Below are positions 14,903 through 49,512 of a stretch of DNA of 49,512 nt, piece after piece. This DNA comes from an uncultured Ignavibacteria bacterium (lineage in GTDB: Bacteria; Zixibacteria; MSB-5A5; SM1-73): positions 1-49,512 of the forward strand of contig CAZWAO010000001.1 of assembly GCA_964631815.1 (NCBI GenBank), written 5' to 3'. The position numbers and the translations under genes were made by a program. The number at the start of each line of letters is the position of its first letter. The first letter of the stretch is position 1. The notes under the pieces are model-generated. The model was not told where the DNA came from. It did not search any database and saw nothing but the letters and a program-made list of their open reading frames with translations.

Positions 14903-17893
14903 ATGCTTAAAGGAGAGCGAAGGATTTTTGTCCTTGTTTTGTCGGTCTGCCTGCTCCTGGTGGCCGAAGCGGCGTCGGGAGCAGCCATCAACAAGGATCA
15001 TGACTGGCAGATCATCCAAAACCGGCTGGCCGAATTTGAGCCTGCCGAGTCGGCAGTTGGGCCGGTGGTGAAAGACGGTCCCAAAGCTGGTGGAGACTTA
15101 ATCTGGTGGTTTCAGGGAATCGAAAACGTGGAATCCGTCTCGCCGTTTGTGGACGTGGACGGTGATGTGCTTCCGGACGTGCTGTTGGAAACCTACGATT
15201 CCGGCGCCCCGGCGGCAGATCACTTCTATTGCATCAAAGGGAACAGTCCCGGTTACGGCACGGTTCTTTGGTCCTGTCGGCCGGTGGGAGGACCGAGCAA
15301 CAGCGGCGGCTACGGCGATCAGTGCGTGTCCTATACCAGCGATCTAAACGGTGACGGGCATGCCGATGCTTTACTGGGCACGGCCTGGGGAGGCCGGACC
15401 GCGTATGGCATAGACGGCGTGAACGGAGGCACCATCTGGTCCTATGACACCTACGTGTACACTCCCTCCGGGTGGGTTTACAGCATCTGCCCCATCCAGG
15501 ATTTAAGCGGGGATGGTGTACCGGAGGTGGTCTTCGGGTGCGGCTCGGACGCCAACGCCGCTTACTGCGTCGACGGCACCAACGGCTCCTTGATCTGGAA
15601 ATTCCAGGCCAACGATGCGGTCTTTTCGGTGGCTGAGATCAGAGACGTGAATGGAGACGGGAAGAATGACGCTCTGGTGGGAACCGGCGATCCGGATGAG
15701 GATCGGCTGGTTTGCGTCTCCGGCGCCAGCTCGGGAAGCGCCACTTTAAGATGGCAAATCCACCTGGGGAACTCGGTGCATACCGTGGCAGCCATAGAGG
15801 ATGTCAACGGAGACGGAAAGCAAGACGCCTTGGCCGGCGTATGGGACGGAAGAGTGTATTGTCGAAGCGGCGTGGGTGGAGCCCATATCTGGAGCTACTA
15901 CGTGGGCGATTACATCATGCGGGTGGTCCCCATTGCCGACATCGATGACGACGGTATTCAGGACGTTCTCGTGGGATCCTGGGCTAATGCCATAATCTGT
16001 CTCTCCGGAGTGGATGGGTCCTTAATCTGCCGGTACACCGTGGGAACTCTTAACGGAGGGGACGTGTGGAGCGTGGATGCCATGGGTGACGTGAACGGTG
16101 ACGGCTATCCTGAGGCTTTGGGAGGATCGTTCGACTACAATGTGTATTGCGTTGACTTGAGACAGTGCGACACCCTCTGGACATACTACACCGGAAACCG
16201 CCTGTATACGGTCAGAGGTTTGCCGGATGTGAATGGCGACAATACCCCCGACGCCCTGGCCGGAACCCAGATGCTCAGCTCGTCCGGAGGAAAAGCTTAC
16301 TGCATCTCCGGTGGTGCTCCGCTGGACACCCTGCCGAACATCGTCAGCACCTGGCCCACGCAGAACCAATTGAACGTCCCCATCGACGCCGACATTTCGG
16401 TGACCTTCGATGTGCCCATGGATGAAACCACCATCAACAGCTCCACCTTGGTGGTCAACTCATGGTCCACCGGGCTTCATCAGGGAATCATCACCTACGA
16501 TGGCGGAACCAAAACGGCCACCCTGAATCCTTCGGTGGATTTCGATGAAGGGGAATTGGTAACCGTGGTACTCACCACGGGGATAGAATCGTTCTGGGGT
16601 ACTCCGTTGGAGAACAGCTACGTCTGGTCCTTCACTACCGAGGTCAGCGACGAAAGCCCCGGAACTTTCAGGCTGGATTCATCCTACACGGCGGGCGATA
16701 GCCCTTGGTCCATCTTCGCAGCCGACTTAAATGGCGACGGCGACGTGGACTTGGCCACCGCCAACGCCTACTCGGATAACATCTCAGTTCTATTGAACGC
16801 GGGGGACGGCACTTTTGCGGCTCACGTGACTTATCCGGTGGGCGACGAGCCCTGGTCGATCTTTGGAGGCGATCTTGACGGTGATGGAGACATAGACTTA
16901 GTGAGCGGCAGCATGGCCAACAACACGGTTTCGGTTTTGCTCAACAATGGAGACGGCACCTTTGCTCCCCAATCAACCTGCTTAGTCGGCACCAGCCCTA
17001 TCTGCGAATTTGCCGGCGATCTCGACGGCGATGGCGACCTGGACCTGGCAACGGCAAACGTATATTCCGACGACATCTCGGTCCTGTTGAACAACGGGGA
17101 CGGAACCTTTGCCGCGCAATCCCTCTATTCCGCCGGTGCGGGAAGCATGCCCGCATACGTCTTCGCGGCCGATCTTGACGGTGACGGGGATCTGGACCTG
17201 CAGACTTCCAACTACGGCACCTACGACGTTACGGTTTTGATGAACGACGGGCACGGCGCCTTCACCTTGTCGGCGCTCTATCCGGTAGGCGATCTTCCCT
17301 TGTCGGTTTTAGCCGCCGATCTGGATGCGGACGGTGACTTGGACTTGGAGACGGCCAATTGCTACTCCTACAATGTCTCGGTCCTCTTGAACAACGGCGA
17401 CGGCACCTTTGGCGCCCAGTCGGTCTATCCTGCTGGCACCAACCCGTGGTCGAGCTTCGCCGTGGACGTGGACGGTGACGGTGACCTGGACCTGGCCACA
17501 TCAAACGAGTATTCCAACGACGTCTACATTCATCTGAACAACGGGGACGGTACGTTCGTCGTCGATTCGATCTATCCGGTCGGCGATTACCCTTACTCCG
17601 TTTCTGCCGCTGACTTTGACGGCGACGGCGATCTGGACTTAGCGACCGCCAATCACGGCACCGACGACGTTTCGGTTCTGCTCAACTGCCTGTGCACCGG
17701 CAACGCCAACGGAGACGAGATAACGGACGTGGCGGACGCGATTTATCTTCTGAACTACCTTTTCAAGGAGGGACCAGCCCCCAGTCCGTTGTTGACCGGC
17801 AACGTGAACTGTGACGGTGTAGTGGACGTGGGAGATGCCATCTACCTTTTGAATTATCTGTTCAAGTCAGGTCCTCCGCCCAAATGCTGTTAG
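14903..17893 (+). CDS. Large secreted double beta-propeller (FG-GAP/VCBS-type) protein with an Ig-like domain and a C-terminal dockerin
   Basis: 996 aa. AGGAGG Shine-Dalgarno and a signal peptide (RRIFVLVLSVCLLLVAEAASGAA). Eight D[VLI]NGDG...YC[VI].G..G..[IL]W blades span about 15149-16320. The Ig-like module is at 16334-16639. Seven ~49-aa FG-GAP repeats and a dockerin follow. Confidence 0.9.
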   Translation: MLKGERRIFVLVLSVCLLLVAEAASGAAINKDHDWQIIQNRLAEFEPAESAVGPVVKDGPKAGGDLIWWFQGIENVESVSPFVDVDGDVLPDVLLETYDSGAPAADHFYCIKGNSPGYGTVLWSCRPVGGPSNSGGYGDQCVSYTSDLNGDGHADALLGTAWGGRTAYGIDGVNGGTIWSYDTYVYTPSGWVYSICPIQDLSGDGVPEVVFGCGSDANAAYCVDGTNGSLIWKFQANDAVFSVAEIRDVNGDGKNDALVGTGDPDEDRLVCVSGASSGSATLRWQIHLGNSVHTVAAIEDVNGDGKQDALAGVWDGRVYCRSGVGGAHIWSYYVGDYIMRVVPIADIDDDGIQDVLVGSWANAIICLSGVDGSLICRYTVGTLNGGDVWSVDAMGDVNGDGYPEALGGSFDYNVYCVDLRQCDTLWTYYTGNRLYTVRGLPDVNGDNTPDALAGTQMLSSSGGKAYCISGGAPLDTLPNIVSTWPTQNQLNVPIDADISVTFDVPMDETTINSSTLVVNSWSTGLHQGIITYDGGTKTATLNPSVDFDEGELVTVVLTTGIESFWGTPLENSYVWSFTTEVSDESPGTFRLDSSYTAGDSPWSIFAADLNGDGDVDLATANAYSDNISVLLNAGDGTFAAHVTYPVGDEPWSIFGGDLDGDGDIDLVSGSMANNTVSVLLNNGDGTFAPQSTCLVGTSPICEFAGDLDGDGDLDLATANVYSDDISVLLNNGDGTFAAQSLYSAGAGSMPAYVFAADLDGDGDLDLQTSNYGTYDVTVLMNDGHGAFTLSALYPVGDLPLSVLAADLDADGDLDLETANCYSYNVSVLLNNGDGTFGAQSVYPAGTNPWSSFAVDVDGDGDLDLATSNEYSNDVYIHLNNGDGTFVVDSIYPVGDYPYSVSAADFDGDGDLDLATANHGTDDVSVLLNCLCTGNANGDEITDVADAIYLLNYLFKEGPAPSPLLTGNVNCDGVVDVGDAIYLLNYLFKSGPPPKCC
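16684..17689 (+). repeat. Seven tandem ~147-nt coding repeats (FG-GAP/VCBS blades)
   Basis: Repeated unit: P[WL]S.FAADLDGDGDLDLATAN..S[DN][DN][VI]SVLLNNGDGTF......YP.G. Confidence 0.85.
17699..17890 (+). other. Dockerin-type module (class 1), C-terminus of the 996-aa protein
   Basis: [64 protein letters not shown]: two Ca-loop plus helix segments. Confidence 0.8.
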
Positions 17894-18147
17894 CCGGCGG
17901 CGGTCGGATTACATGGGGTTGACTTTTGCAGCCGCAGACTTTTGGTCTGCGCGCTTGAGCACAGGTTCCCCGGCGCGCTGCTACAAGGAGCATTGTCAAC
18001 CGTACCACATTGATGACTTTGCATCTTTTGTCGTGTCTTGGTGAACGGCGGTATGAGGAAAGCGATAAACTATGAAAGCGGAGACATTGAAGTCTCCAAT
18101 CACGGGAGGCGGAGGCCTCCCGCCATCTTTTCAGGAGAAGACAGCCC

Positions 18148-18912
18148 ATGGACATGAGGATCAAAGACAAGTTCCTGCAGTCGTGGCGGAAATACTTCGA
18201 CGATGCGGAGTTGCCCATTATCTTCTACTACACGGATGATGCAACGCCCGCAGAGGTGCTGAAGCCGCCCTCGGAACATAGATGTGTAATTTGCGATCTG
18301 GGGCGGGTCAGAAGCGGGGAGTCCCTCTGTTTCGGCCCCGATTCGCCCGGATGCGGAGGCGGAAAGAGATACTTCGGATTCACCCAGGAGCTTTCCCCCA
18401 ACTTCGAATATTTCCTGTCTTGCGGAATACCGGGGAAGCTGGAGGGCGAGCGCTACAAGAAAACGCCCGAGCTGGTCAAGGAAGCGCTCAAAAGATCGCC
18501 CCAGTTCAAGGCCCCGGCGAATTTCATTGTCTTCAAACGGTGGGATTCTCTGGAGAAGTCCGATGATCCTCAGGTGGTGATATTCTTTTCCCCGCCGGAC
18601 GTTCTCTCCGGACTTTTCACCTTGACTAACTACGACGAGGCCGATCCCGACGGGGTATTTGCGCCGTTCGGTGCCGGATGCAGTACCATCGTGCAGTATC
18701 CTTTCCTGGAGAGAAACTCCGAACGTCCCCGGGCGGTTCTGGGGATGTTCGACGTTTCGGCTCGACCCTGCGTCCCGCAAAACGTTCTGACCATTTCCGT
18801 GCCCATGGACAAGTTCGTCAGGATGATCGATAATATGGATGAGAGCTTTCTGATCACCGGTTCCTGGAACAAAGTGAACCGGAGAATAGGCCGCTCGGAG
18901 AAAAATAACTAA
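18148..18912 (+). CDS. DUF169 family protein (cytoplasmic, Cys-containing)
   Basis: 254 aa, no signal peptide. CVICDL...GCGGGKRYFGF...PQVVIFFSPPDVLSGLF...GAGCSTIV...ARPC resembles the DUF169/COG2043 pattern. Confidence 0.6.
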   Translation: MDMRIKDKFLQSWRKYFDDAELPIIFYYTDDATPAEVLKPPSEHRCVICDLGRVRSGESLCFGPDSPGCGGGKRYFGFTQELSPNFEYFLSCGIPGKLEGERYKKTPELVKEALKRSPQFKAPANFIVFKRWDSLEKSDDPQVVIFFSPPDVLSGLFTLTNYDEADPDGVFAPFGAGCSTIVQYPFLERNSERPRAVLGMFDVSARPCVPQNVLTISVPMDKFVRMIDNMDESFLITGSWNKVNRRIGRSEKNN

Positions 18913-18993
18913 TTCTCAGCCGGAGAAAAAAACAACTTGTGACAACTCCGCGCATACACAACTAAGAAATCAGCTTCCCTGTCTGGAGGTTCT

Positions 18994-20700
18994 ATGACCA
19001 AATGGACGATGTTCTGCTTGACCTGCGGGCTCATTTTAGTCGGTATGAGCGGCCGGGTTTTTGCCGCCGATCTTTCACGGGCGGTGATTTTGGACGTGCC
19101 GGATTCCAAAATCGAATCGCAGTTCGGGAAACTGCCTCCTTTGCAGCTTACTCCGCAGGATTTGGCCGGCATGGCCTCCTATCGATTCGAGGGCGACACT
19201 CTTAAAGTACTTGCCATCTTGGTGGAATGGGACAATCGACCTCATACCTATTCCCGGGAGACCTTCGACAGCCTCCTTTTTTCCAGGAATGTATTTCCGG
19301 GGGGTTCTCTGGCAGACTACTACTATGAGGTATCCTACGGACAGCTATGCGTCACCGGGCAGGTTCTGGAGTGGTATAACGCCGGATGGTATTACGACGA
19401 CTATTGGCTGGAGGATCTTTTTGCCGATCTGGACCCGGACATAGACTACTCTCAGTTCGATGGCGATCACAATGGCGACGTGGACGCCGCGGTCTTCATT
19501 CGCTCGGGCAACGGTGAGGAGGACTCGCAAGTCTCCTGGGATATCTGGTCTTATGCCATGGTTTACCCACCGGGTTCAGGCCCCGGACCATTCGACGGTA
19601 TGTACATACCCAGATGGAATACCTCCCCGGAGACACGACCGCTGCGGAATCCGGATAACCCCACACAGTTTTCCGGAGTCGACACGCTCAATCGGATTCG
19701 GGTATTCGCCCATGAAATGGCCCATTGTATCGGATTGCCGGACCTGTATGACTATGATGACAAGCTGGTGACCTCCACCTACTACACGCCCGATGACGAC
19801 AACGATCATCCCTATATGGATTGGTGTTTGATGGGATATTACGGCTACGGGCTGTTCTCCATCGGGACCGACATACCGGTTCATCTCTGCGGATGGTGCA
19901 AGAAGGAGATGGGATGGATCCAGCCGGTCGTGCTGACCGAGGGCACCTACCAGGATCTGGTGATACACAGCTTCGAGACGACCAACGACAGCTCCCTGTA
20001 CCTGATTCCGATAGATCCGGCCCAAGGTGAGTATTTCCTCTTGGAATACCGCAACCGAGTCTCCCCGGCCCAGTATGACAAGGTGGATTCCGACTTCAGC
20101 TGCTATTTCTGGCCGGATTTGGCCTATGGCTGCGATCCCTTAGACCGGGGGCTTCTGGTGACCCACGTTCACGACTCGCTGGGCGCATACTACTGGCGGA
20201 TAAACAGCGGCACGCCGGATCTCCCCCATTACACCGTGGCCGTGGAAGACGCAGGCTACAATCCCACACGGGACGTTTGGAGCAATCCGGAAGGGTTCGT
20301 CACCGACAGCGCCCAGTGGTGGTACCCGTACGAAACCAGGAAGGCAGCGGTGTTCTCAAGCGATGTATCAGGTCAGGAGACTTTTGGTCCCGAAACCTAT
20401 CCCAGCAGCGACGGATACTACAGCCCCACCGGAATAGTGGTCACCGTCGATTCTATGCTAAGCGACAGGCTTTATGCCTACGTCTACATCCCGTCGTCGT
20501 TCTCACTTGGCGATGCAAACGGCGATGAGGTGGTAGACCTTGAGGACGTGATCTTTCTGCTGAACTACCTGTTCAAAAACGACGACCCTCCCGACCCGTT
20601 GGAGGCGGGCGATGCCAACTGCAATGGCACGGTCGAGCTGGGGGATGCCATCTTTCTCTTGAACTATCTTTTCAGAAACGGCCCACATCCGAGCTGTTAG
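18994..20700 (+). CDS. Secreted M6-family (immune inhibitor A-like) metalloprotease with a C-terminal dockerin
   Basis: 568 aa. Signal peptide (FCLTCGLILVGMSGRVFA). LKVLAILVEWDN...GSLADYYYEVSYGQL...DGDHNGDVDA...VFAHEMAHCIGLPDLYD (HExxH plus the LPDLYD hallmark of the M6 domain). Confidence 0.85.
   Translation: MTKWTMFCLTCGLILVGMSGRVFAADLSRAVILDVPDSKIESQFGKLPPLQLTPQDLAGMASYRFEGDTLKVLAILVEWDNRPHTYSRETFDSLLFSRNVFPGGSLADYYYEVSYGQLCVTGQVLEWYNAGWYYDDYWLEDLFADLDPDIDYSQFDGDHNGDVDAAVFIRSGNGEEDSQVSWDIWSYAMVYPPGSGPGPFDGMYIPRWNTSPETRPLRNPDNPTQFSGVDTLNRIRVFAHEMAHCIGLPDLYDYDDKLVTSTYYTPDDDNDHPYMDWCLMGYYGYGLFSIGTDIPVHLCGWCKKEMGWIQPVVLTEGTYQDLVIHSFETTNDSSLYLIPIDPAQGEYFLLEYRNRVSPAQYDKVDSDFSCYFWPDLAYGCDPLDRGLLVTHVHDSLGAYYWRINSGTPDLPHYTVAVEDAGYNPTRDVWSNPEGFVTDSAQWWYPYETRKAAVFSSDVSGQETFGPETYPSSDGYYSPTGIVVTVDSMLSDRLYAYVYIPSSFSLGDANGDEVVDLEDVIFLLNYLFKNDDPPDPLEAGDANCNGTVELGDAIFLLNYLFRNGPHPSC
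20509..20697 (+). other. Dockerin-type module (class 1), C-terminus of the M6 protease
   Basis: GDANGDEVVDLEDVIFLLNYLFKNDDPPDPLEAGDANCNGTVELGDAIFLLNYLFRNGPHPSC. Confidence 0.8.
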
Positions 20701-20728
20701 CATATAGCCGTTGATGGAGCACAATTCG

Positions 20729-20764
20729 GCCCCAGCCTCGTTTGAGCTGGGGCTTTCTTCTATT
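20729..20764 (+). terminator. Rho-independent terminator after the M6 protease gene
   Basis: GCCCCAGC-(9 nt)-GCTGGGGC stem followed by TTTCTTCTATT. Confidence 0.6.
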
Positions 20765-20848
20765 CGAACAGGACCTTTTCGGTTTTGACCTTCCGATGAC
20801 CATCCGGTCACATGATCGACATCCACCAAGCTCCGGGACAGATTTTCC

Positions 20849-20878
20849 TTGACCCCAGACCGTAGCGACGGATATATT
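20849..20878 (+). promoter_or_regulatory. Sigma70-type promoter TTGACC-N18-TATATT
   Basis: Read directly from the sequence, 30 nt upstream of GTG 20909. The -35 coincides with the ORF-track TTG start, which argues against that start. Confidence 0.45.
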
Positions 20879-20908
20879 TGCCTGAAGCCAAATCGAAAAG
20901 GAGGGAAT

Positions 20909-22762
20909 GTGAACCAACGTGTCGGGCCTTTCAAGCAGCTAAGAAGACTTTTTCCCGTTCTGTGTCTTATCGTCTTTATTCTCCTCGGCTGGAATAGGAG
21001 TACTCTCGCAGCAAAGGACTACTACATTCAGAATGTAACCATACAAGCCCGACTAAACGCCGACGGCAGCATGGACATAAAGGAGACCAGGACCTATTTG
21101 TTCCGGGGACATTTCCACTGGGCTACCTACCATCTGCCCACCGACAGGACCGGCGGGGTGATCGATTTCACCGTGGGCGAGGAAGGCAGGGCGTATTCCC
21201 GGGGATACCAGGCAGTAGCGGGAACTTATCAATATGATGAAACCGCCGATGCAATTGACGCCAAGTGGTTCTTCGACGCTGAGGATGAAATCCGCGTTTT
21301 TGTTCTCTCCTACAGAATCCTGGACGTGGTGAAGCTCTATCAGGACGCTGCGGTCTTGTATCACAAGTTCGTAGGGACCGGTTGGGATAAAACATCCCAA
21401 CAGGTAAACGTGACCGTTTATCCTCCCGAGGCGATTGACAAAAAAGACGTGAAAGCATGGGCTCACGGACCCTTGTGGGGCACAATCCGGATCACGGATG
21501 ATGGGTCGCTCGTGGCTGAAGTACAGAGTCTGCCGGCAAAGACCTTTTGGGAGATCAGAGCCATATATCCGACAAGTCTCTTTCCGGGGATCATGGAGGT
21601 GATTCCCGAAAGGGTGGTTGAAAACATCCTGGCCGAGGAGAAAACCTGGGCAGATGAGGCCAATAAAAAGAGAGAGGAATGGACAAGAAAGCAAAAAGCC
21701 AGAAAGGTTCTTACCGGATACGGAAGTTGGGTGGTTCTGATATTAAGTGGATTCGGCCTCTGGAGGGTGATCCGGCTTTACAAACGATATGGAAGGAAAC
21801 ATAAGGTCTCCTTTCCCGACACCTTTTACTCCGAGCTTCCGTCGGACATCCCGCCTGCCCTGCTGAGTTATCTTCTGCATCGTGGACAGTTGGGCGGAGG
21901 AGCTTTGGTGGGCACTCTGCTCGACTTAGCCCGGCGTGGTTTCCTGAAGATCAAGGAGGACATGCAGACCAAGAGGGGAATCTTCGGGTCCTCCAAAAAG
22001 CGTCTGTATACACTACAATTCGCTCGTGACTTCCATTCGGAGAATAAGGAAAGCTTGAAGGATTTCGAGGAAAGTCTCCTGGCGTTTATTTTCGATGATC
22101 TGGCCGAAGGCAGGGACGAAATCGACTTTGCGACTTTGAAGAAGAGTCGCTCCAGATTCCTCAGTTGGTTCAGGCAATGGAAGAAAGAGGTGCAAGCGAT
22201 GGGCAAAAACCAGGGCTACTGGGAGAAAGAGAGCCTGAAGGCCAGCAAAAAGGGAATGTTCGTGGGGCTGCTTTTTATCGTGGTGACGATCCTGTCGGTG
22301 ATCTTAATCGGAGCATGGGCTATAGTGCCGGGCATCAGCGCTGTTGTCCTTATGATTATCTCTGGTTTCATCCCCAGACGGACCCCGGAGTACGAGTTGG
22401 AAGCGACAAAATGGAGGGGGTTGAGAAAGTATCTGAAAAAATATCATTTCAGAGATTCAGACAGCCGGTTCTTCTTGGAGAATATCGGCAGATTCTTGGC
22501 TTACGCGGTCGTTTTGGGATTGTCTGCTGAGGTGATCAAGAAGATGGCCGAGATGATACCAGAAGGCCAACAGAGCACCTATGTTCCCTGGTATGCGGCC
22601 AGCCATCCTCATGCCGATTTCTCGCCGGCCGGGTTTGGTGAAGCTCTCTCCTCACTCATGACTACAGCTACAACCACCATGAGTTCTGCCTCCGGAAGCG
22701 GCGGGGGTGCTTCGGGAGGAGGGGGCGGCGGAACCGGTGGCTCTGGCGGCGGAGCGGGTTGA
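20909..22762 (+). CDS. DUF2207 domain membrane protein with a Gly-rich C-terminal tail
   Basis: GTG 20909 is preceded by AAGGAGGG. It has a signal/anchor segment (LFPVLCLIVFILLGW), an extracytoplasmic N-domain (YYIQNVTIQARLNADGSMDIKETRTY..F.G.FHWATY), several TM segments and the tail SGSGGGASGGGGGGTGGSGGGAG, all typical of DUF2207. Confidence 0.8.
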   Translation: MNQRVGPFKQLRRLFPVLCLIVFILLGWNRSTLAAKDYYIQNVTIQARLNADGSMDIKETRTYLFRGHFHWATYHLPTDRTGGVIDFTVGEEGRAYSRGYQAVAGTYQYDETADAIDAKWFFDAEDEIRVFVLSYRILDVVKLYQDAAVLYHKFVGTGWDKTSQQVNVTVYPPEAIDKKDVKAWAHGPLWGTIRITDDGSLVAEVQSLPAKTFWEIRAIYPTSLFPGIMEVIPERVVENILAEEKTWADEANKKREEWTRKQKARKVLTGYGSWVVLILSGFGLWRVIRLYKRYGRKHKVSFPDTFYSELPSDIPPALLSYLLHRGQLGGGALVGTLLDLARRGFLKIKEDMQTKRGIFGSSKKRLYTLQFARDFHSENKESLKDFEESLLAFIFDDLAEGRDEIDFATLKKSRSRFLSWFRQWKKEVQAMGKNQGYWEKESLKASKKGMFVGLLFIVVTILSVILIGAWAIVPGISAVVLMIISGFIPRRTPEYELEATKWRGLRKYLKKYHFRDSDSRFFLENIGRFLAYAVVLGLSAEVIKKMAEMIPEGQQSTYVPWYAASHPHADFSPAGFGEALSSLMTTATTTMSSASGSGGGASGGGGGGTGGSGGGAG

Positions 22763-22887
22763 TTTCCCCAAGTCCGGGGGAGTATACGAAGAGGCTACCG
22801 CCCCGCTTTTTTCTTTTAATGAGATTGAATCATCGTAACTTCGTTTGCTCCGATTAAGAGAATCGCTGCCCACGCTGACGATTCGTC

Positions 22888-22915
22888 TTTACAAAATCGT
22901 CTGTAGGCTTATTTT
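22888..22915 (+). promoter_or_regulatory. Candidate promoter TTTACA-N16-TATTTT
   Basis: Read directly from the sequence. A transcript from here would carry the double-hairpin element (22954-23034) in its 5' UTR. Confidence 0.35.
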
Positions 22916-22953
22916 GTGGTAAGAGAAAGGTTACTTCATTCAAGCCCATAGCG

Positions 22954-23034
22954 TCAAGTTGCGTCGGGATATTGTTATCCCGACGCGAAATCAAAGTTGA
23001 GAGTGCATCGGGACTACAAAGTCCCGATGCAACA
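22954..23034 (+). repeat. Double-hairpin repeat element, copy A (81 bp)
   Basis: TCAAGTT-GCGTCGGGATA/TTGT/TATCCCGACGC-GAAATCAAAGTTGAGAGT-GCATCGGGACT/ACAA/AGTCCCGATGC-AACA. It has two perfect 11-bp stems and is repeated at 24544-24627. Confidence 0.85.
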
Positions 23035-23071
23035 GAGCCCCAGCCGTTTGGTGATCTTCCACGGAGGAAAC

Positions 23072-24364
23072 ATGAATAAGAAGTCGTTTTCATACCATAT
23101 AGGCACTGTGTTTTTCTGTCTGGGCTTTTTCTTTATGGCTTCTTTAGCGAATGCTGAGCCCATCATCGCCGATCACAACTCCGTCGGAGAGTTCGAGAAC
23201 ATCCCCGATTCGCTCATCCAAGCCATCGGAAGCGACTATCTGATCTTCTACGGACACACTTCTCACGGCAGCCAGATCGTGACCGGGATAAGTCTGCTCT
23301 ACGACGAGGATCCTTTCTACGACCCGCCGACATTCTACGAGTATGGGGACGACTTGGGAGGCACCGGAGACACATCCTGGGCACCTCCCACCAGGGCTTG
23401 GCTGAATTCGCATCCGGAGTATAACATGGTCATGTGGTCCTGGTGCGGCGGCTGTTCCGACAATACGGAGCAAGGTATAAACATATATCTTGATGCGATG
23501 AACGGGCTGGAGCAGGACTATCCCGGCGTCAGATTCATCTACATGACCGGTCACTTGGACGGCAGTGGCCCGGAAGGTAATCTTTACGCCAGGAATAATC
23601 AGATTCGGGACTACTGCCTGGCAAACGACAAAACCCTCTTCGACTTCGCGGATATTGAAAGCTACGATCCTGATGGCAATTATTACCCCGATGCCAGCGA
23701 TGCCTGCGAATGGTGCTACGATTGGTGTGCGCTCTATCCTTGCCCCTCTTGCGGCTGCGCTCACTCTCACTGCTTCAACTGCTACCAGAAGGGAGAGGCC
23801 TGGTGGTGGATGATGGCCCGAATCTCCGGCTGGAATCCGGAGTTGGATTCTATTCCGGAAGTCGTGAGCACTTCACCGGCAAATAACCAAATGAATGTGC
23901 CGGTGAACACGAACATTACGGTTACTTTCAGCATCGAAATGGACCAAACCTCGATTAACGATACCACGTTTGTGGTGAGCGCGGAGTCCAGCGGGATTCA
24001 TCCGGGAACGATAACCTACGACAGCCCGACCGAAACTGCAACCTTCGACCCGGACAGCAACTTCCATGAAAACGAGATGGTGAACGTGACGCTGACTGCG
24101 GAAATAGGATCATCCGAGGGGATTCCGTTGGACAGCAGTTACGCCTGGTCATTCACTACGAACATGGGAAGAGGGGACGTAAATGAAGACGGAATCGTGG
24201 ATATATCGGACGCAATCTTTCTGCTGAACTACCTCTACCGGAACGGCCCGGCCCCTGATCCCCTTGAAATCGGAGACGTCAATTGCGATGACCTGGCAGA
24301 TTTGGAGGACGCGCTCTATCTGATAAACTATCTCTTCAAAAACGGACCTTCGCCAGGTTGCTGA
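23072..24364 (+). CDS. Secreted protein: unassigned enzyme-like N-domain, Cys/His-rich knot, Ig-like domain and dockerin
   Basis: ATG 23072 is preceded by GGAGG. The ORF-track start at 22997 lies inside the hairpin repeat. Signal peptide (VFFCLGFFFMASLANA). The Cys cluster CEWCYDWCALYPCPSCGCAHSHCFNC is present. The Ig-like module (23852-24160) is homologous to 16334-16639. Confidence 0.8.
   Translation: MNKKSFSYHIGTVFFCLGFFFMASLANAEPIIADHNSVGEFENIPDSLIQAIGSDYLIFYGHTSHGSQIVTGISLLYDEDPFYDPPTFYEYGDDLGGTGDTSWAPPTRAWLNSHPEYNMVMWSWCGGCSDNTEQGINIYLDAMNGLEQDYPGVRFIYMTGHLDGSGPEGNLYARNNQIRDYCLANDKTLFDFADIESYDPDGNYYPDASDACEWCYDWCALYPCPSCGCAHSHCFNCYQKGEAWWWMMARISGWNPELDSIPEVVSTSPANNQMNVPVNTNITVTFSIEMDQTSINDTTFVVSAESSGIHPGTITYDSPTETATFDPDSNFHENEMVNVTLTAEIGSSEGIPLDSSYAWSFTTNMGRGDVNEDGIVDISDAIFLLNYLYRNGPAPDPLEIGDVNCDDLADLEDALYLINYLFKNGPSPGC
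24173..24361 (+). other. Dockerin-type module (class 1)
   Basis: GDVNEDGIVDISDAIFLLNYLYRNGPAPDPLEIGDVNCDDLADLEDALYLINYLFKNGPSPGC. Confidence 0.8.
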
Positions 24365-27275: not shown

Positions 27276-29414
27276 TCAGGTTTTCTCTTCTATCGTCGTC
27301 TCCTTCCTTCTGCTTCTGGAGAGAATCATTTCCAAGGCTACCAGGCCGAACGCCACCCATAGGAAGGTCTTCCACAGTTCTTTCCCGTAGCGGGATTGTA
27401 GAATCGATTTTGCTAAGTCGTCCTGGGGCTCAAGGTAGGCAAAGGAAACCCCTTCAAGTCTCTTGTCAAGCTCGGAGATGTCGATCTTCGCGGGATCGGA
27501 ATCTTGGGGGGCGACATTCACCGCAAAGCGATCTACTGTCTCCGGCTGATCGGCAGAGGAACCCAAAAACCTTATGCTGTATATCCCGGGAAGTTCTACG
27601 TCGCTTATGTTCAGAACCAGCTTTTCGCCCTGAAACGATGGATGCAGGGCGGTTCTCTTCATCTGGGGATCCACCACCTCGATTTCCTTTCCGGCCAGAT
27701 CGGCTGGAAGCTCCCGGAAAACCTCCGAGCCTACCAAAATGTTCTCATTCAAACGAGTCAAATCGGAAGCAAGATACTCTACAGACCGATTGATCATGGG
27801 AACGAAGAAGGGATGGATTACCAGATCGCCCTGGGTTTCATCCACCGGCGCCGCTAAAAGCAGCATCTTTCCCTTGCCCAAACTCTTTTCCACCAGCGCC
27901 GGCTTGCCCAAATTGAAACGAATAAGGGTCTTGGTATCTTTCCCGCTCTCCGGCAGCTCGAAGATGCTGGAGAACTTAATGGCTGGAGCGTCTCCCCCTT
28001 CCACCTCGCGGTAGACCTGGAAAATGGGATGCTCCAAATCGATCTTCTCGAAGCTGAAGAAACCTCCCGAGTTCTTGGTGGCCGTCAGCGGACTTTTCAG
28101 GTCAAACCCGAACAACTCTCCGGCGACGTCCTTGGCGTAGAACTCCGGATCGACATTGTCTCCCAGTATGAAAAAGACTCCTCCTCCTTGCTGCACGAAT
28201 CTCTTGAGGTTGGTCAACTGGACCTCGGATAAGCGGGACAGGTTGGAAAGGATCACCACCTGGTAGCGGTTGAAATCCACGCCCGGCAGGGAGCTTAAGT
28301 CCGCCCGGGTGACTTCCTTGCTGGCATCGCCGCTCTGCAAGGGATTGAGAGCCAAACTAAGATAGCGGGTGTCCCTGTCGCTCTGCCCAACCAACAGAAC
28401 CCGGGTTTTCTCCGGAATCCGAAAGGCGAAATACCTCCGGTTGTCGATGAGCAGATCGTCGTCGGTCAATTCGAAAAATCCTGTGTGAATGCCCGCCTGC
28501 TCCACCGTGGGCGCAAACCTGACCGTGGTTTTGCCCTCCTTTTCCACGTCCACGTCAGTCTGGCTGACTCTCTTTCCGTCCAGATACAGGCCCACCAAGA
28601 GGCTCCTAGCGGGCTGGGAGTTGTGGTTGACCACCTGCGCGGATATCTGAAACGGCCTTCCCTTTTCAATCAACTGATTGCCGAAATCGATTTTTTCCAG
28701 AGATAAATTCTGCTTCTCCCCGGGCGCCACATCCACCACAAAGAGTTTGGCATTCTGAGCTTGGGAGCTGGCAAGGTTCGCGGACAGGTCAGACCAGCCG
28801 GCTTTATCCATATCGGTAATCAGGTACATCTCCCGGTTCAGATTCTTGGAATCTCCCAGGATATGGTAACCCAGATTGAGGGCAACTCCTACGTCTGTTA
28901 TCTCCGCCGACAAGGCGGTCTCTTCCAGATGCTTGGTTAGATTCTTGAAATCGGACGTGGGCTGCTGTGTCACCGGTTCGGGCTTGGATGCGAACAGGAT
29001 CAGGCTGGCTTCGTCGCCCTCCTCAAGCTGCGCCAATATCTGCTCTGCTTTTGCCTTGGCCAACTTGAATACCGGTCCGTCTTTGGTATCGTATCCCATG
29101 CTGTACGAGTTGTCCAGAAGAATCACCACCGAGGTCTTGGCATGTGCGCCCACTTTTGTGGCGAAACCTCCCTTTATGGCCGGCCTGGCAAAGGCGGCCA
29201 CCACCAACAGGATGATCAGGGTCCGAATCACCAGAAGCAGGTACTCCACTATCTTCACCCTTCTCATCCTGGTCTTCTCCAAAGACCTAAGAAACAGAAG
29301 GGAGCTGAAAGGTATGGTCTTAACCTTCTGCCGGTTGAAGATGTGAATCAAAAGCGGCAGAAGAATGGCGGCACCCGCCGCCAGAAGTATGATGGGATTT
29401 AGAAAGCTGAACAC
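27276..29414 (-). CDS. BatA-like membrane protein with N-terminal double-TM and vWA domains
   Basis: 712 aa, GTG start with GGGGA Shine-Dalgarno. FLNPIILLAAGAAILLPLLIHIFNRQKVKTIPFSSLLFL (aerotolerance BatA N-terminal motif), MIDAS-like VVILLDNSYSMGY, and a C-terminal TM segment. Confidence 0.8.
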   Translation of the reverse strand: MFSFLNPIILLAAGAAILLPLLIHIFNRQKVKTIPFSSLLFLRSLEKTRMRRVKIVEYLLLVIRTLIILLVVAAFARPAIKGGFATKVGAHAKTSVVILLDNSYSMGYDTKDGPVFKLAKAKAEQILAQLEEGDEASLILFASKPEPVTQQPTSDFKNLTKHLEETALSAEITDVGVALNLGYHILGDSKNLNREMYLITDMDKAGWSDLSANLASSQAQNAKLFVVDVAPGEKQNLSLEKIDFGNQLIEKGRPFQISAQVVNHNSQPARSLLVGLYLDGKRVSQTDVDVEKEGKTTVRFAPTVEQAGIHTGFFELTDDDLLIDNRRYFAFRIPEKTRVLLVGQSDRDTRYLSLALNPLQSGDASKEVTRADLSSLPGVDFNRYQVVILSNLSRLSEVQLTNLKRFVQQGGGVFFILGDNVDPEFYAKDVAGELFGFDLKSPLTATKNSGGFFSFEKIDLEHPIFQVYREVEGGDAPAIKFSSIFELPESGKDTKTLIRFNLGKPALVEKSLGKGKMLLLAAPVDETQGDLVIHPFFVPMINRSVEYLASDLTRLNENILVGSEVFRELPADLAGKEIEVVDPQMKRTALHPSFQGEKLVLNISDVELPGIYSIRFLGSSADQPETVDRFAVNVAPQDSDPAKIDISELDKRLEGVSFAYLEPQDDLAKSILQSRYGKELWKTFLWVAFGLVALEMILSRSRRKETTIEEKT

Positions 29415-29471
29415 TTTTCCCCGTCGGTCTACCTGTTTTGACGTCGACTAATGATTCGATCCGGCCGACTC

Positions 29472-31370: not shown

Positions 31371-31387
31371 TAGTCCCTCTCCTCGAC

Positions 31388-33280: not shown

Positions 33281-33396
33281 TGTCTTATCCTGTCTTTACT
33301 CGGATCATGCAAGCGTCAAACCCAGGCTTTACGTCCAGACCGTAAGATCACCTGAAACCGCTTGCCAGTCCGAGACCGAAGTTCGGCCCACGAAAG

Positions 33397-33900: not shown

Positions 33901-34105
33901 TCTGTTGTTTATACTCTCTTGAGCCTTCCATGACTCAGACAAAATCTCCACCTTTCGCAAAAAGGTGACCCATCGGACATTGGTCTATATGTTTTACTTG
34001 AATTGACCTTACAAGATTTGCCTCCACAGCTGCTCGTTAGTCGATTCGGCTGCGACCGGATTGGCTTCCGCCCCTTGACCCCTGTTCTAAGCATCCACCT
34101 CCCGA

Positions 34106-35688: not shown

Positions 35689-35691
35689 AGG

Positions 35692-36555: not shown

Positions 36556-36679
36556 CTATAAGTTCTGATCCGATGAGTTCTGGGATTTCCCCTCTTTGAG
36601 CCGGCTGCGCCCGACAGCGCCCCACTTTTCCCGTTCGCGGAAGAGGACGGGACTCCATCGGTTTGCGGGAAGCAAGCGC

Positions 36680-37675: not shown

Positions 37676-37749
37676 GTTTTCCTCCTGAGTAGTCAATACT
37701 AATATACATTCGAAGCTTCAGGATAATTGAACCTTTTTTAAGAAATCGG

Positions 37750-39812: not shown

Positions 39813-39880
39813 GCGTATAATGCTGATGCGGAAGGAGCCGCGGTTGGTATACAAACCCCAGAGCGCAGCCAAAAAAGTGG

Positions 39881-45149: not shown

Positions 45150-47621
45150 TTACGGATTGCCAGGCGCAGGCCCGTTTTTGTAAAGGTAATTGAGCAGGTA
45201 AATCGAGTCTCCTATGTCCACCATACCATCCAAGTTCACGTCTCCACAGGAAGTGATGGGATCACATTGCGGAGGTGTGCCGCTCTTGTATAGATAGTTG
45301 AGCAGGTAAATGGCATCGCCCACGTCCACAGCCCCATCGCCGGTGGCATCGCCGCACACGGACTCGCATTCCCATATCCAGACATGGAAGTCGTCCACGC
45401 CGGCTTCCACCACAGAGCCGGTGCCCAAATCCGAGGCCTCGAAGCGAACCCTGACTTGATCGGTCAAAGTGACGACATGCCCGACCCAAAGATCGTATTG
45501 GCTCCAGCCCGGAGAGGTCTCGGGTCCAATGGTCTTGGCCTGGGTCCAGTTGGTCCCGTCGTCGCTGGACAAATAGACCTTGAAGACATCCTCCGCCTTG
45601 GTGGAAGTATTTTGGATGCCCGCGTAGGCAGGAAAGCTGTCCGGGTCCTGTCCGGAGTCATTGGTATACCAGAGAGCGAAGTGGATTCTGGCATCGCTTC
45701 CCTCGCTTAAGTCCAAGGTCGGGGAGATCAGCCGGGTGGCCCCGCCGTCCACGTCCGAATTGCCGTCGACGTTGTCCGTGAGATAGCAGCAGCCGGAGCC
45801 GTCGAAATCGGCAGGCGGGTCGCCCCTGTCGCCGCCTCCCACGGGAACACCGCGCTCCCAGGCACCGGAGGTTAGATAGGGATCGTTTTCCACGGTCCAA
45901 CCCGAATTGGTCTCGAAGTCGTCGGCGAACATGGAGGTAAGCATCCCCACCAGCGAAGAGTAGACTATGGAAGGAGCATATGGCGGATCGTAGACTTCGC
46001 CCGCCAGAGATGCCTGGGCGCTGAAGTAGAATTGAGGCGTCACCCCACAGCCGGCCCCCGGAAGCGTAGCCTCATATAGATCGCCGCCCAGCGATGTCAA
46101 CGGCGCGGAGATGTAAGAGCCGCCTTGATAGCGGTAGTGAAGCATCTCCGTGCCCGGGATGAGAGAATCGTCTTCGTCGCGGATCCGCACCTGAACGCTG
46201 GTGGGAGTGCCCGGCACTAAGAATTCGGGCAAACCATCGGGATAGTCGAAGTTCAAGGGGGTTTCCAGCCGGCTCAGTCCCTTCATGCAGAAGTTCGCCG
46301 TGCCGGTCCAGGGCGGGTCGTCAAAATCCTGCAGGTCGATCCAGACCCCATCCTGGCGATAGTAACTCTGTCCAGGCCTGGCGGAGGACTCCACAATGGT
46401 GCGATACTTGGCGCCTAAAAGCACGGGAACGTCCGAGGTCCGGTCATAGGGCTGACCGCCGTCCGACAGGTACAGGTAGACATAGAAATCCTGGTGGGCT
46501 TGCAGGGGAATAGGTGTATCCAGGTCGATGGTGTGAAATCCGGTGTACTGAATGAATCCCGATTTGGTGGAAAGCACGTCCGTCAACCCACCGCCATCAA
46601 AGCCACCGAATACCGTGACCGTGTAATCGACGTTGTCCGCGGCGGTGAAGAAACTGACGGCCCTCAGCACCTCCTGACCCTTCCCCCCACCCTGGGCCGT
46701 GAAGGCATTGAATGCCTCCAGGCAATCCTGCTTGGTGTCACGCCAGCCGTGGTAATCGTGATAATACACCCGATCGTACGACATGGGCTCGACGTTGTGA
46801 AGAGAGACCGCACCCATCTGGGGATCCTGACAACTGTACTTATCATAGTAGGATATCCAGAAGTAGCCGTTCAAGCACCAACCTTCTCCCCAGGAATTCT
46901 TGACCAACCAGGCGCCCCGCTGGGGAGCCTGGGTCTGTTTGTTGTCGTCCCAGCCGATGATGGTCACCGCATGATTCGGCTCCGAGCTACTGGAAGCCGG
47001 CTGGTAGTGGCAGCAGTTGGACATGTACGAGCCGCTGTAGCATATGCAGGTGCCCATGGCCCCGTATGTCATGATTATTTCTTTGATGGTGTTGATGTTG
47101 GATAGGTCGGTTCCGGCCACGTACCATTCGACGTCCCGGGGGTAGTAATAATGGTAGGAGGTATCGTCTCTGGCCGGAGGATAAGTGAAAGACTGACCGT
47201 CTATGTCTCGCACCGCCCCCTCGCCCCGGCTTAGATAGGCCGAGGCCACTCGATAGTCTCCCCCCTCGTGAACCACCAACCCGCTGCCCGTGGGAGGGGT
47301 GATGTCATCGTTGTTGTTCTCGTTGAAGCCGTTCCACCAATCCAAATGATACTCCGCCAGGTTCGGCTCCCCACTTTCTCCCGCCGCCAGCCAGCCTCCG
47401 GTCATCAGGAGATTGCTCTCCATGGAGGCCATCACACCATGAGTCCAACAAGTGCCGCCCTGCTGGCTTTTGACGGAGGTCACGTAATTGACGCCTCCCA
47501 CGTCTCTGAGATCGAAAGAACTTGGCGGATCAGCCAGGGAGGCCGTGAAAGCACCGGCAGAAATCAGGCACGAGCATAGCAACGCCAGAAAAACGACCAA
47601 AGACCTTCTGCTTTGATTCAT
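45150..47621 (-). CDS. Secreted papain-family (C1) cysteine peptidase with beta-sandwich/MAM-like modules and a C-terminal dockerin (class 2)
   Basis: 823 aa. Signal peptide ([23 protein letters not shown]). Catalytic motifs [11 protein letters not shown] (Cys), [11 protein letters not shown] (His), [10 protein letters not shown] (Asn). The MAM/ConA-like region reads [14 protein letters not shown]...CCYLTDN.... Confidence 0.88.
45153..45356 (-). other. Dockerin-type module (class 2, Cys-bracketed)
   Basis: [68 protein letters not shown]. Confidence 0.8.
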
Positions 47622-47959: not shown

Positions 47960-49512
47960 TCACCTGGGCGGGCTACCCGGAGCCGGTCCTGCTTTGAACA
48001 GGTAGTTCAGCAGGTAGATGGCATCGCCCATGTCCACCACGTCGTCTAAGTTCACGTCTCCGCAAAGGGTGATGGGCTGGCACGCCGGAGCGTCACCGTA
48101 CTTATACAGATAGTTCAGGATATAGATGGCGTCTCCGATGTCGACCAAGCCATCGCCGTCGGCATCGCCGCAGTTGGCGATGGGCGAAAATCCGGTGACC
48201 TGAATATCGTCGATGTTCCAACCGAAGGACTGCCACCCGCCGTCGGAGGTACCCATGGTCCATCTCAGATAAACCGTCGGTTGGTCATCCGCCAGCGAGG
48301 AGATGTCCAAGTCCATCTCGTGCCAGGCGTCGTCCACGATCTGATCGGGATTCTCCCAGACAGTGGTGAAGTTGATTCCGTCGGAGCTTACCCGAACCGA
48401 GGCATGATCGAAATCGGGGTCCTCTACTCCCAGCCAACGCCAGAATTTCAGATGTACGTTGAACAAACCGGTCAAGTCCAGAGCTCCGCTGGTCAGATGC
48501 TTCTCCGTCATGTTCTTGGGATAATCTCCCGAAAGGTTGTAACCATAGACATTGGTGCCGGTATAACCGCTGGTGGGATCCTGACCGTTGGCGCCTCCGC
48601 CCGTGGGCTGACCGAAAGCCCAATCCGGCTGAGCTGTCCAACCGGGATCGGTGTCTAAGGTCCATTGGTATGCCGCCGTGGGCGTCCCCACCGTCAGCAT
48701 CACCTGGCGGCTGTCGTCGCCCGCATGATCGGTCAGGTTGGTGAAATAGACGGTGGCGAAGTAAGCACCTTGCTGCAGAGTGGCTGCGTTGGCATTGATC
48801 TCCACGTTCACCTGGCCCGTCTCGTACACGTCCAGGGAGCCGGATACGTCGCCGGAGAGTGTAATCCAATCCGCATCCGCGGTGATCTCATAGCTCATGG
48901 TGACCGCGTTTTTATTCTCGAAGGTGTAAGGGCTGCTGGAGGGAGAGAACGGACCTCCCACCGGGCCTTCCGATTTGAAGTCGTCCTCGGGATCAACCCG
49001 CACGCCCCGATCCACGGTCAACGCCTTCATGCAGAAATTGGCCGTGCCGGTCCAAGGGGGATCGCTGAAGTCATGAAGATCCAGCCATGCGCCGCCCTGG
49101 CGATAGTAGCTCTCTCCGGGCCGGGCAAAGGACTCGACTATGGTGCGGTAGTGCGCTCCCAAAAGCACCGGAACGTCGGAAGTGCGATCATAGGGCTGTC
49201 CGCCGTCCGAAAGATACAGGTAGACGTAGAAGTCGTCGCCGGAGCTTAAGGCCACCGGAGTATCCAGGTCGATGGTGTGAAATCCGGTATATTGAATGGT
49301 TCCCGACTTGGTGGACAGCTCGTCTAAAAGCTCCCCTCCCTCGAAACGATCGTAGATCTCGACAGTGTAGCTGACGTTATCTGCCGCCACGAAGAAGCTT
49401 ACGGCCTGAAGCAGCTCATCGCTGCCCGCCTCGAACGCGTTGAAGGCCTCCGAGCAATCCTCTTTGGTGTCCCGCCATCCGTGGTAGTCGTGGAAGTAAA
49501 CGTGCTCGTATC
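47960..49512 (-). CDS. C1 cysteine peptidase paralogue (C-terminal ~517 aa in the window; the catalytic N-terminus is off the window end) with a class 2 dockerin
   Basis: The reading frame stays open past ORF-track ATG 49390 to the window edge: ..[47 protein letters not shown].. parallels [40 protein letters not shown] in the neighbour. A MAM/ConA-like region and a dockerin follow. Confidence 0.88.
   Translation of the reverse strand, partial: YEHVYFHDYHGWRDTKEDCSEAFNAFEAGSDELLQAVSFFVAADNVSYTVEIYDRFEGGELLDELSTKSGTIQYTGFHTIDLDTPVALSSGDDFYVYLYLSDGGQPYDRTSDVPVLLGAHYRTIVESFARPGESYYRQGGAWLDLHDFSDPPWTGTANFCMKALTVDRGVRVDPEDDFKSEGPVGGPFSPSSSPYTFENKNAVTMSYEITADADWITLSGDVSGSLDVYETGQVNVEINANAATLQQGAYFATVYFTNLTDHAGDDSRQVMLTVGTPTAAYQWTLDTDPGWTAQPDWAFGQPTGGGANGQDPTSGYTGTNVYGYNLSGDYPKNMTEKHLTSGALDLTGLFNVHLKFWRWLGVEDPDFDHASVRVSSDGINFTTVWENPDQIVDDAWHEMDLDISSLADDQPTVYLRWTMGTSDGGWQSFGWNIDDIQVTGFSPIANCGDADGDGLVDIGDAIYILNYLYKYGDAPACQPITLCGDVNLDDVVDMGDAIYLLNYLFKAGPAPGSPPR
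47963..48172 (-). other. Dockerin-type module (class 2, Cys-bracketed)
   Basis: [70 protein letters not shown]. Confidence 0.8.

Follow-up and report, generated by a model that had tools for sequence, protein, structure and literature searches.

The dockerins of the clostridial cellulosomes are C-terminal modules of about 60 residues consisting of two 22-residue segments, each a loop followed by a helix, and their near-symmetrical halves permit dual binding. Examples from C. thermocellum are those of Doc918/OlpA (3UL4), Doc435/OlpC (4DH2) and Xyn10B/CipA (1OHZ, 2CCL). Clostridial cellulosomes belong to Gram-positive hosts and carry glycoside hydrolases (GHs) as cargo. Dockerins on proteins other than GHs, in non-cellulolytic bacteria and archaea and often far outnumbering cohesins, were reportedly described by Peer et al. 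in 2009 (FEMS Microbiol Lett 291:1), in work that is not known to include the present lineage. The present analysis concerns a stretch of 49,512 nucleotides (contig CAZWAO010000001.1; referred to as the window) in which six open reading frames (ORFs) end in a dockerin module. In contrast to the clostridial systems, the host is of the Fibrobacteres-Chlorobi-Bacteroidetes (FCB) group, a Zixibacteria-like and presumably diderm fermenter, and the cargo consists mainly of peptidases and propeller or lectin proteins. On balance, the dockerin proteins are likely to be clients of a non-cellulosomal cohesin-dockerin assembly on the cell surface that serves extracellular proteolysis and is anchored through the secretion system of type IX (T9SS).

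Among published systems, the closest is the 'cellulosome-like' complex described in silico for Candidatus Stygibacter, a member of the Cloacimonadota (Williams et al. 2021; PMC8542988). Ca. Stygibacter has dockerin-tagged S8, C25, GH18 and GH57 enzymes together with a cohesin scaffoldin that bears a T9SS C-terminal domain (CTD), and this scaffoldin is a non-catalytic protein of 3,755 amino acids (aa) with tandem cohesins and carbohydrate-binding modules (PMC8542988). The two systems are alike in their FCB-group hosts, in their signal-peptide enzymes with C-terminal dockerins, in the presence of S8 and C25 peptidases and in the inferred degradation of polypeptides. The system described here differs in that it comes from another phylum, has far more dockerin genes (no fewer than 63 within 296 kb of a single sister metagenome-assembled genome, or MAG) and has a single cohesin, as part of a terminal dockerin-cohesin-CTD cassette on enzymes or on a minimal 418-aa protein. 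What the analysis does is to extend, in silico, a proposal that had been made for the Cloacimonadota.

The cargo of T9SS, exemplified by the gingipains of Porphyromonas gingivalis, offers a further comparison. It resembles the cargo considered here in including C25, S8, M6, C10 and FG-GAP proteins and in carrying its tag at the extreme C-terminus, and in the SGNH-like family described below the dockerin and the T9SS CTD are interchangeable at that position. The T9SS CTD, however, is a beta-sandwich, whereas the dockerin here is predicted to be an alpha-helical calcium-binding module whose attachment would be non-covalent and mediated by a cohesin. Since no multi-cohesin scaffoldin was found and GHs do not dominate the cargo, the system falls outside the strict definition of a cellulosome. 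A literature search found no paper linking Zixibacteria with dockerins, and for Latescibacteria and dockerins it returned only two fungal-microbiome studies.

Type I dockerin modules

An earlier account of the window made from the letters alone (the sequence-only reading) had described duplicated C-terminal segments at six places, and all six are located there. Scanned alone, each of the six modules (63-70 aa) exceeds the gathering score of Pfam PF00404 Dockerin_1, which is 22.9 bits, a result well outside what chance would give:

17699-17890, plus strand: dockerin module 1, 25.1 bits
20509-20697, plus strand: dockerin module 2, 32.4 bits
24173-24361, plus strand: dockerin module 3, 37.6 bits
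37858-38046, plus strand: dockerin module 4, in an orphan ORF, 27.0 bits
45153-45356, minus strand: dockerin module 5, 34.3 bits
47963-48172, minus strand: dockerin module 6, 34.4 bits

The first three modules end proteins that were said to carry signal peptides, and hydrophobic N-terminal signal sequences are indeed present in all three translations. The remaining three had been presented simply as further copies. Their coordinates are right, but 37858-38046 lies in an orphan ORF of 93-99 aa that lacks a signal peptide, and the gene containing 47963-48172 is cut off by the window end at 49512.

Each module contains the pattern GDxNxDGxhDxxDAIxLLNYLF in duplicate. The presumed calcium ligands fall at alignment columns D2, N4, D6, D10 and D13 in loop 1 and D35, N37, D39, D43 and D46 in loop 2, a spacing that corresponds to loop positions 1, 3, 5, 9 and 12, and a helix follows the loop in each segment of about 22 residues. 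To place these modules in a wider set, dockerins were scanned in one genome per species, which gave 167 confirmed matches, mostly in about eight MAGs. Seventy-six loci picked for their dockerins make up 0.87 Mb together with the window, and this DNA contains 156 ORFs with a dockerin module. D13 and D46 are present in all 156 copies, and D2, D6, D35 and D39 in at least 94% of them. Close dockerin homologues bear Zixibacteria source names throughout, and further loci come from Candidatus Zixiibacteriota MAGs.

The six window modules share 59-63% identity with one another and have 17 invariant alignment columns, among them the LNYL of both halves, while the two halves of one module are on average 65% identical. 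The helix motif LLNYLF(K/R)GGPxP is near-invariant among paralogues with unrelated cargo. A dual binding mode is known for type I dockerins. Similar halves, and a near-invariant surface despite unrelated cargo, are what a single shared partner and this dual mode of binding would produce.

Searched against the Protein Data Bank (PDB), a profile of the six modules retrieves the solved type I dockerins 3UL4_B (E = 3e-6), 4DH2_B and 2Y3N_B, in that order. An AlphaFold2 (AF2) model of the module at 24158-24361, built from 109 sequences, has a mean predicted local distance difference test score (pLDDT) of 93.9 and helices at residues 16-27, 36-39 and 49-60. The top 32 Foldseek matches of this model in the PDB are cellulosomal dockerins, with template modelling (TM) scores of 0.6-0.8 and probabilities of 0.96-1.0; 31 come from cohesin-dockerin complexes and one is a dockerin solved alone in solution by nuclear magnetic resonance. 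The predicted fold superposes on clostridial dockerins with TM scores of 0.7-0.8 and 24-40% sequence identity. By profile score and sequence match all six modules are type I dockerins, and the predicted fold agrees for the one that was modelled, which bears out the architecture originally proposed. They are set apart from the clostridial dockerins by the near-invariant helix motif, by a Cys pair in most copies and by the failure to find a multi-cohesin scaffoldin.

Co-varying cysteines and module subtypes

Copies with a Cys in calcium loop 2 (column 38 or 40) tend to have another in the short stretch past the last helix, the column 38 Cys pairing with an x-C tail and the column 40 Cys with an xPGCA tail. 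The contingency counts are 118/3/5/23 (Fisher p = 3.7e-19, uncorrected for phylogeny). The two residues probably form a disulfide, stapling the tail at the C-terminus to calcium loop 2, a reading that fits an oxidising extracytoplasmic location. As the terminal Cys co-varies with the loop-2 Cys, an internal disulfide is favoured over a role in processing or lipidation. To our knowledge, no co-varying Cys pair has been reported for solved dockerins. Among the window modules, 17699-17890 ends in ...PPPKCC, 20509-20697 in ...PSC and 24173-24361 in ...PGC, while 45153-45356 represents a subtype in which Cys residues flank the calcium loops and the terminal Cys is absent.

NCBIfam NF041540, 'GC-type dockerin domain-anchored protein', describes a C-terminal dockerin-like anchor with, by its name, a Gly-Cys end, as in many of the copies here (...PGC). 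Of eight proteins scanned, this model matched just two, with scores near 17 bits where its cut-off is 29. The modules are therefore not members of this family. The term 'GC-type dockerin' was found in no paper in a literature search.

A cohesin candidate in a T9SS cassette

According to the sequence-only reading, the window contained no recognisable cohesin, and a scaffoldin, if there was one, would be encoded elsewhere. No window ORF matches Pfam Cohesin. The absence of any cohesin-like protein, which that reading named as grounds for its refutation, is not what was observed: cohesin-family modules do lie beside the same dockerin type, and they were found in sister genomes, at 83-88% nucleotide identity to the window, and not in this genome. 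These modules, termed MID, are about 135 aa long and directly follow the dockerin in a set of cassette proteins. Five such proteins were found in four sister MAGs:

L036, 1842-3098: MID cassette protein
L008, 2-2233: MID cassette protein
L008, 2299-4569: MID cassette protein
L047, 5492-10960: MID cassette protein
L068, 2193-8255: MID cassette protein

The same order of domains recurs in 11 metagenome loci (L079-L089), for a total of 15 distinct MID copies, 10 of them from metagenomes. The dockerin directly precedes MID in all 15, separated from it by a linker of about 15-30 residues, and there is one cohesin per cassette protein. A T9SS sorting domain closes every cassette copy whose C-terminus lies on the contig, including four sister-MAG copies that end in KMxLVK. 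The sorting domain was recognised from FlgD_ig and Por_Secre_tail matches and from TIGR04183 (34.2 bits against a cut-off of 23). Cassette cargo is an S8 peptidase, a C25 peptidase with a beta-helix, FG-GAP/UnbV_ASPIC or Laminin_G, or else the cassette stands in the minimal 418-aa protein. Only seven dockerins are not C-terminal, and five of these share the dockerin-MID architecture.

Membership of MID in the cohesin family was established through intermediates. A hidden Markov model (HMM) of MID matches P0086, P0127, P0046 and P0143, all retrieved with the window dockerin profile, at E = 1e-31 to 1e-35, and BLASTP aligns MID with the same four proteins at 30-47% identity (E = 1e-13 to 1e-22). 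In three of the four the MID-matching region scores above the Pfam Cohesin threshold (32.4, 28.7 and 25.5 bits), whereas P0143, at 17.0 bits, falls below it. Direct comparisons point the same way. Cohesin was the sole family matched by more than one member in a Pfam scan of 11 MIDs (three of 11, best E 9.8e-4), although the best itemised score, 15.5 bits, does not reach the PF00963 gathering threshold of 24.1 bits. A search of the PDB with the MID profile returned three matches, the best two of which are the type II cohesins 5G5D_A (E = 0.012) and 3L8Q_A (E = 0.068). Three tests are decisive, namely the MID HMM, the BLASTP alignments and the Pfam scores of the intermediates, and from them we conclude that MID belongs to the cohesin family as a divergent member, its membership being transitive. 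A narrow profile of three CipA type I cohesins (the CipA sequence is identical to 1ANU) matched neither the loci nor MID by hmmsearch or hhalign; this result is uninformative because the effective number of sequences in the profile (Neff) is 1.4.

L036, with its cassette protein, belongs to CAZPRG01, the MAG that also contains L001, L045 and L069. As this MAG is syntenic with the window, the genome from which the window derives very probably has an L036 orthologue. A separate specificity class for the anchor dockerins was considered and rejected, as no alignment column sets them apart from the client dockerins. Since they cannot be distinguished in this way, the cassettes could interlink.

Neither the 0.87 Mb of sister-MAG DNA nor the 11 metagenome loci yielded a multi-cohesin scaffoldin. 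Other cohesin arrangements occur in relatives. P0042, an 832-aa protein on a 5.5-kb European Nucleotide Archive (ENA) contig, has two Pfam cohesins (58 bits), each after a dockerin-like segment, and a C-terminal dockerin, a layout like that of an adaptor scaffoldin, and in P0127 the cohesin-like region is N-terminal.

No window protein carries a T9SS CTD. An HMM built from the cassette CTDs found the domain in 21 proteins of the loci and in none of the window, where Pfam likewise found no Por_Secre_tail. Seventeen further sister-MAG proteins (for example in L029, L043, L044 and L030) have the T9SS sorting domain without a dockerin, and the two kinds of tag therefore coexist in the sister genomes.

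Abundance and cargo of the dockerin family

In the 0.87 Mb sampled, 151 of the 641 called genes carry a dockerin, a share inflated by the choice of loci for their dockerins. In 149 of the 156 copies no more than nine residues separate the end of the module from the C-terminus, and 109 of the 125 complete dockerin ORFs have a hydrophobic N-terminal signal. A profile search of 1.84 billion representative proteins returned 35,994 clusters at E <=1e-3 and 11,249 at E <=1e-10, which makes this dockerin subtype abundant in metagenomes. The top of this search includes four proteins (P0007, P0008, P0010 and P0011) with at least six tandem copies of the same subtype; nine copies were mapped in P0007, P0008 and P0010, and the search matched up to 12 stretches. 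Chains of so many dockerins are out of the ordinary and might serve to cross-link surfaces that bear cohesins. A second type of extension, 145 aa long and rich in Cys, comes after the dockerin in L011 (2372-5365) and L013 (325-2982); it ends in CVQRD(D/H)YPWG(I/T)P and has no Pfam match.

A homologue search with a single 68-aa module gave only six matches and an alignment query only short ORFs, which yielded names of taxa but no picture of the cargo, so cargo was tabulated from the sister-MAG loci. Proteins of this kind are named 'dockerin type I repeat-containing protein' by NCBI, and 56 of the 70 in the census match Dockerin_1 at E <=1e-4. The families attached to the 70 dockerins include C25 (nine), C1 (six), FG-GAP (six), S8, M28, M23 and M20 (three each), and M6, M1 and GH116 (two each). 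Eight peptidase families account for 31 matches, and GH116 is the sole GH among the 25 families listed. The idea that the cargo is devoted to capturing and degrading protein is thus upheld by the window cargo and broadened by that of the sister MAGs, with the reservation that two of the 70 sampled proteins are GH116 enzymes. The system is protease-dominated, not protease-only.

Dockerin proteins of the window

The window encodes six products with a dockerin:

14903..17893, plus strand: FG-GAP propeller protein, 996 aa, with a signal peptide, an N-terminal beta-propeller, Big_5, about 10 FG-GAP/VCBS repeats and a dockerin
18994..20700, plus strand: secreted M6-family metalloprotease, 568 aa, with a HEMAH motif and a C-terminal dockerin
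23072..24364, plus strand: Cys-rich SGNH/GDSL-like protein, 430 aa, with a signal peptide, a 230-aa Cys-rich domain, Big_5 and a dockerin
37750-38049, plus strand: orphan dockerin ORF, 93-99 aa, without a signal peptide, the remnant of a Peptidase_C10, FG-GAP and dockerin gene
45150..47621, minus strand: secreted C1 (papain-family) cysteine peptidase, 823 aa, with a lectin-like domain, a choice-of-anchor-J-like region and a dockerin
47960..49512, minus strand: paralogue of the C1 gene, cut by the window end, with lectin-like and BACON-like domains and a dockerin, its N-terminal peptidase part lying past the window

The first three products had been described as a propeller protein, an M6 metalloprotease and a Cys-rich enzyme-like protein, and family matches and a predicted fold agree with all three descriptions. 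In the 996-aa protein Pfam FG-GAP_3 matches 10 stretches (E = 7e-64) and Big_5 covers residues 476-579; its orthologue in L001 is 997 aa long. The product of 18994-20700 scores 112.8 bits on TIGR03296 (cut-off 110.8) and 21.9 bits on Pfam Peptidase_M6, marginally under the gathering score of 22, and its translation contains the HExxH zinc motif as HEMAH. It is assigned by these features to the M6 metallopeptidases (immune inhibitor A family), and it has orthologues of 568 aa in L012 and L035.

The Cys-rich protein most likely starts at the ATG at 23072, which gives 430 aa as in its homologues, while the listed ORF begins with a TTG at 22997. It matches Big_5 at 71 bits and the dockerin model at 33-37.6 bits. 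Its Cys-rich domain (23156-23845, plus strand; residues 29-258) matches no Pfam or NCBIfam model but has 7141 homologues, with 54-91% identity among the 120 best, about 10 invariant Cys residues and the motifs YGHTSHGSQ, SWCGGCS, YMTGHLDG and CAHSHCFNCY. The family spans Zixibacteria, Latescibacteria, Eisenbacteria, Acidobacteriota and one archaeal MAG, and its members end in Dockerin_1, T9SS CTDs (Por_Secre_tail, FlgD_ig), CHU_C, IPTL-CTERM, TSP_3 or Big_7. An AF2 model of the domain (pLDDT 92) retrieves PatB and GDSL esterases in Foldseek (E = 1e-4, probability 1.0), with TM scores of only 0.44-0.5 and 10-14% identity. PatB is a peptidoglycan O-acetyltransferase. In its predicted fold the domain resembles SGNH/GDSL proteins and appears enzyme-like, and the GHTSHG sequence could be a candidate SGNH block I.

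The 823-aa C1 protein matches Peptidase_C1 (56.7 bits) and Lectin_like (83.7 bits) and has an 823-aa orthologue in L069. Its paralogue, translated from 47960-49390, matches Lectin_like (104.7 bits), BACON_2 (24.8 bits) and Dockerin_1 (27.1-34.4 bits), and the full-length orthologue in L069 is 797 aa long. The orphan ORF clusters at >=90% identity with the C-terminus of P0274, a 968-aa protein from a Joint Genome Institute (JGI) metagenome that contains Peptidase_C10, FG-GAP and a dockerin and is encoded between MoxR and an AbfD-like gene in the syntenic locus L078. An alignment shows that 2.78 kb of L078 (9855-12637) are missing between window positions 37767 and 37780. Since the intact C10 and FG-GAP part occupies the same site in L078, the orphan ORF is the deletion remnant of a C10-protease gene. 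Family scans of all window ORFs found no GH, in agreement with the sequence-only reading.

Proposed mechanism and alternatives

The model that we infer for this system has five steps. Each client would be exported by Sec by means of its signal peptide. Its C-terminal type I dockerin would then fold around two calcium ions, the Cys pair stapling the tail in most copies, and would plug into a cohesin displayed on the cell surface. The cassette proteins (cargo, dockerin, cohesin and T9SS CTD) would act as anchors, type IX secretion exporting them and attaching them to the outer membrane, and as they bear a dockerin of their own they could chain to one another. Finally, extracellular protein would be captured and broken down by the peptidases together with the propeller and lectin binding modules, and the resulting peptides and amino acids may feed the amino-acid and acyl-CoA fermentation genes nearby. 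It is possible, though doubtful, that the system amounts to a proteolytic analogue of the cellulosome on a Gram-negative surface, formed in a way that has no published description and without a long scaffoldin, in which dockerin-cohesin-T9SS enzymes daisy-chain into an open network decorated by many disulfide-stapled, dockerin-only clients.

Several observations weigh against a surface assembly of this kind. Cohesins are scarce, with five cohesin-bearing proteins for 151 dockerin genes in the 0.87 Mb (about 1:30) and no Pfam Cohesin match in the window. MIDs remain under the Pfam threshold, have no match with the narrow CipA profile and are linked to cohesins solely via intermediates. The single cohesin always stands beside a dockerin in the same chain, so that closure in cis is possible. 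The dockerin-only proteins lack a T9SS domain, and the model offers them no route across the outer membrane.

The main rival, which is considered unlikely, holds that the dockerin acts independently of cohesin as a lineage-specific C-terminal tag, serving calcium-triggered folding or stabilisation, or sorting or anchoring via other machinery or a surface polymer, and that the cohesin proteins are a side branch. Dockerins without detectable cohesins occur in many organisms, and in the sampled DNA dockerins outnumber cohesin-like modules by about 30 to 1. A tag would also suit the placement of 149 of 156 modules at the extreme C-terminus, mostly with a conserved terminal Cys, and the SGNH-like family, which has either a dockerin or Por_Secre_tail, FlgD_ig, CHU_C or IPTL-CTERM at one C-terminal site. 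Nevertheless, the modules have the fold and the conserved helix surface of cohesin-binding type I dockerins, and cohesin-family modules co-occur with exactly this dockerin subtype. The co-variation of the terminal Cys with the loop-2 Cys points to an internal disulfide, and the Sec signal peptides speak against a C-terminal secretion signal like those of type I secretion systems.

Alternatively, the cassette cohesin might bind only the dockerin adjacent to it, as a structural clasp in cis in certain T9SS cargo, with the dockerin-only proteins freely secreted or held by another cohesin or receptor encoded elsewhere. All 15 distinct MIDs directly follow a dockerin in the same chain, and each protein has one cohesin, with no multi-cohesin scaffoldin in the sampled loci, as such a clasp would predict. 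It is nonetheless quite improbable, as no alignment column separates anchor from client dockerins, so that a cohesin able to bind either kind would be expected to accept both, and as relatives have other arrangements (P0042, with two cohesins and terminal dockerins, and P0127, with an N-terminal cohesin). Finally, the notion that the modules lack a function, being fortuitous matches of EF-hand-like or low-complexity sequence or a product of faulty assembly, has in its favour the modest single-module Pfam scores (25-38 bits) and is refuted by the six window copies and 156 copies in related DNA that lie in register at C-termini, by the 11,249 clusters at E <=1e-10 among 1.84 billion proteins, by the confident and dockerin-specific fold prediction and by synteny that keeps the genes across species.

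Genomic context

Two genes without a dockerin lie between the dockerin genes in the first part of the window:

18148..18912, plus strand: DUF169 protein (Pfam DUF169, 7e-27)
20849..22762, plus strand: DUF2207 membrane protein with DUF2207 and DUF2207_C matches and a long Gly/Ser-rich C-terminal tail

The position of the DUF2207 gene is kept in L045 and L012; no evidence was found that ties its product to the dockerin system. Other genes of the window encode TrpRS, folB/folK, panB/C/D, Rho, RsfS, BatA/VWA/DUF58/MoxR and ZnuABC. Metabolic genes include an AbfD-like HpaB-family enzyme, Hbd, acetate kinase and an NfnAB-like pair. The presence of Hbd, named in the sequence-only reading, was confirmed by a 3-hydroxyacyl-CoA dehydrogenase (3HCDH_N and 3HCDH) at 39963-40859 on the plus strand. 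A 329-aa ORF at 39786-40775 on the minus strand has no family match and overlaps this real gene. The segment from 27276 to 37696 on the minus strand is a Bat aerotolerance-like cluster (BatA/VWA, TPR, DUF58 and MoxR) interrupted by a xylose-isomerase-like TIM-barrel gene and ZnuABC, and its order is identical in L078. A stand-alone HNH endonuclease gene at 1826-2332 on the minus strand adjoins trpS.

The window is collinear with L001, L045 and L069 of MAG CAZPRG01 at 83-88% nucleotide identity and with contigs of CAYMNI01 and CAYFQZ01 at 76-87%, and its GC content is even (0.52-0.58). All three MAGs bear the label 'uncultured Ignavibacteria bacterium', in contrast to the Zixibacteria names on the dockerin homologues. 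A genomic island was considered and rejected on account of the even GC content, the housekeeping flanks (Rho, RsfS, panBCD, folBK) and the gene order kept in sister MAGs. The description of the locus as a 'dockerin island' therefore does not hold; by composition, neighbours and synteny, the dockerin genes sit among housekeeping genes in conserved core sequence.

Significance

The features in which this system varies on the published theme, namely the single-cohesin dockerin-cohesin-CTD cassette, the Cys staple and the scale of the family, are worth following up. The tag is present on roughly one gene in four across the DNA sampled near dockerin genes. If the proposed assembly is real, a widespread sediment and soil lineage known solely from metagenomes would commit a very large share of its secretome to one docking system directed at protein instead of cellulose. 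Cohesin-dockerin assembly would then extend to diderm FCB bacteria and be tied mechanistically to type IX secretion. A uniform dockerin with a probable disulfide staple and a small single-cohesin partner could serve as orthogonal parts for designer enzyme complexes. For the organisms themselves, the system would offer a handle on their role in the turnover of protein and necromass.

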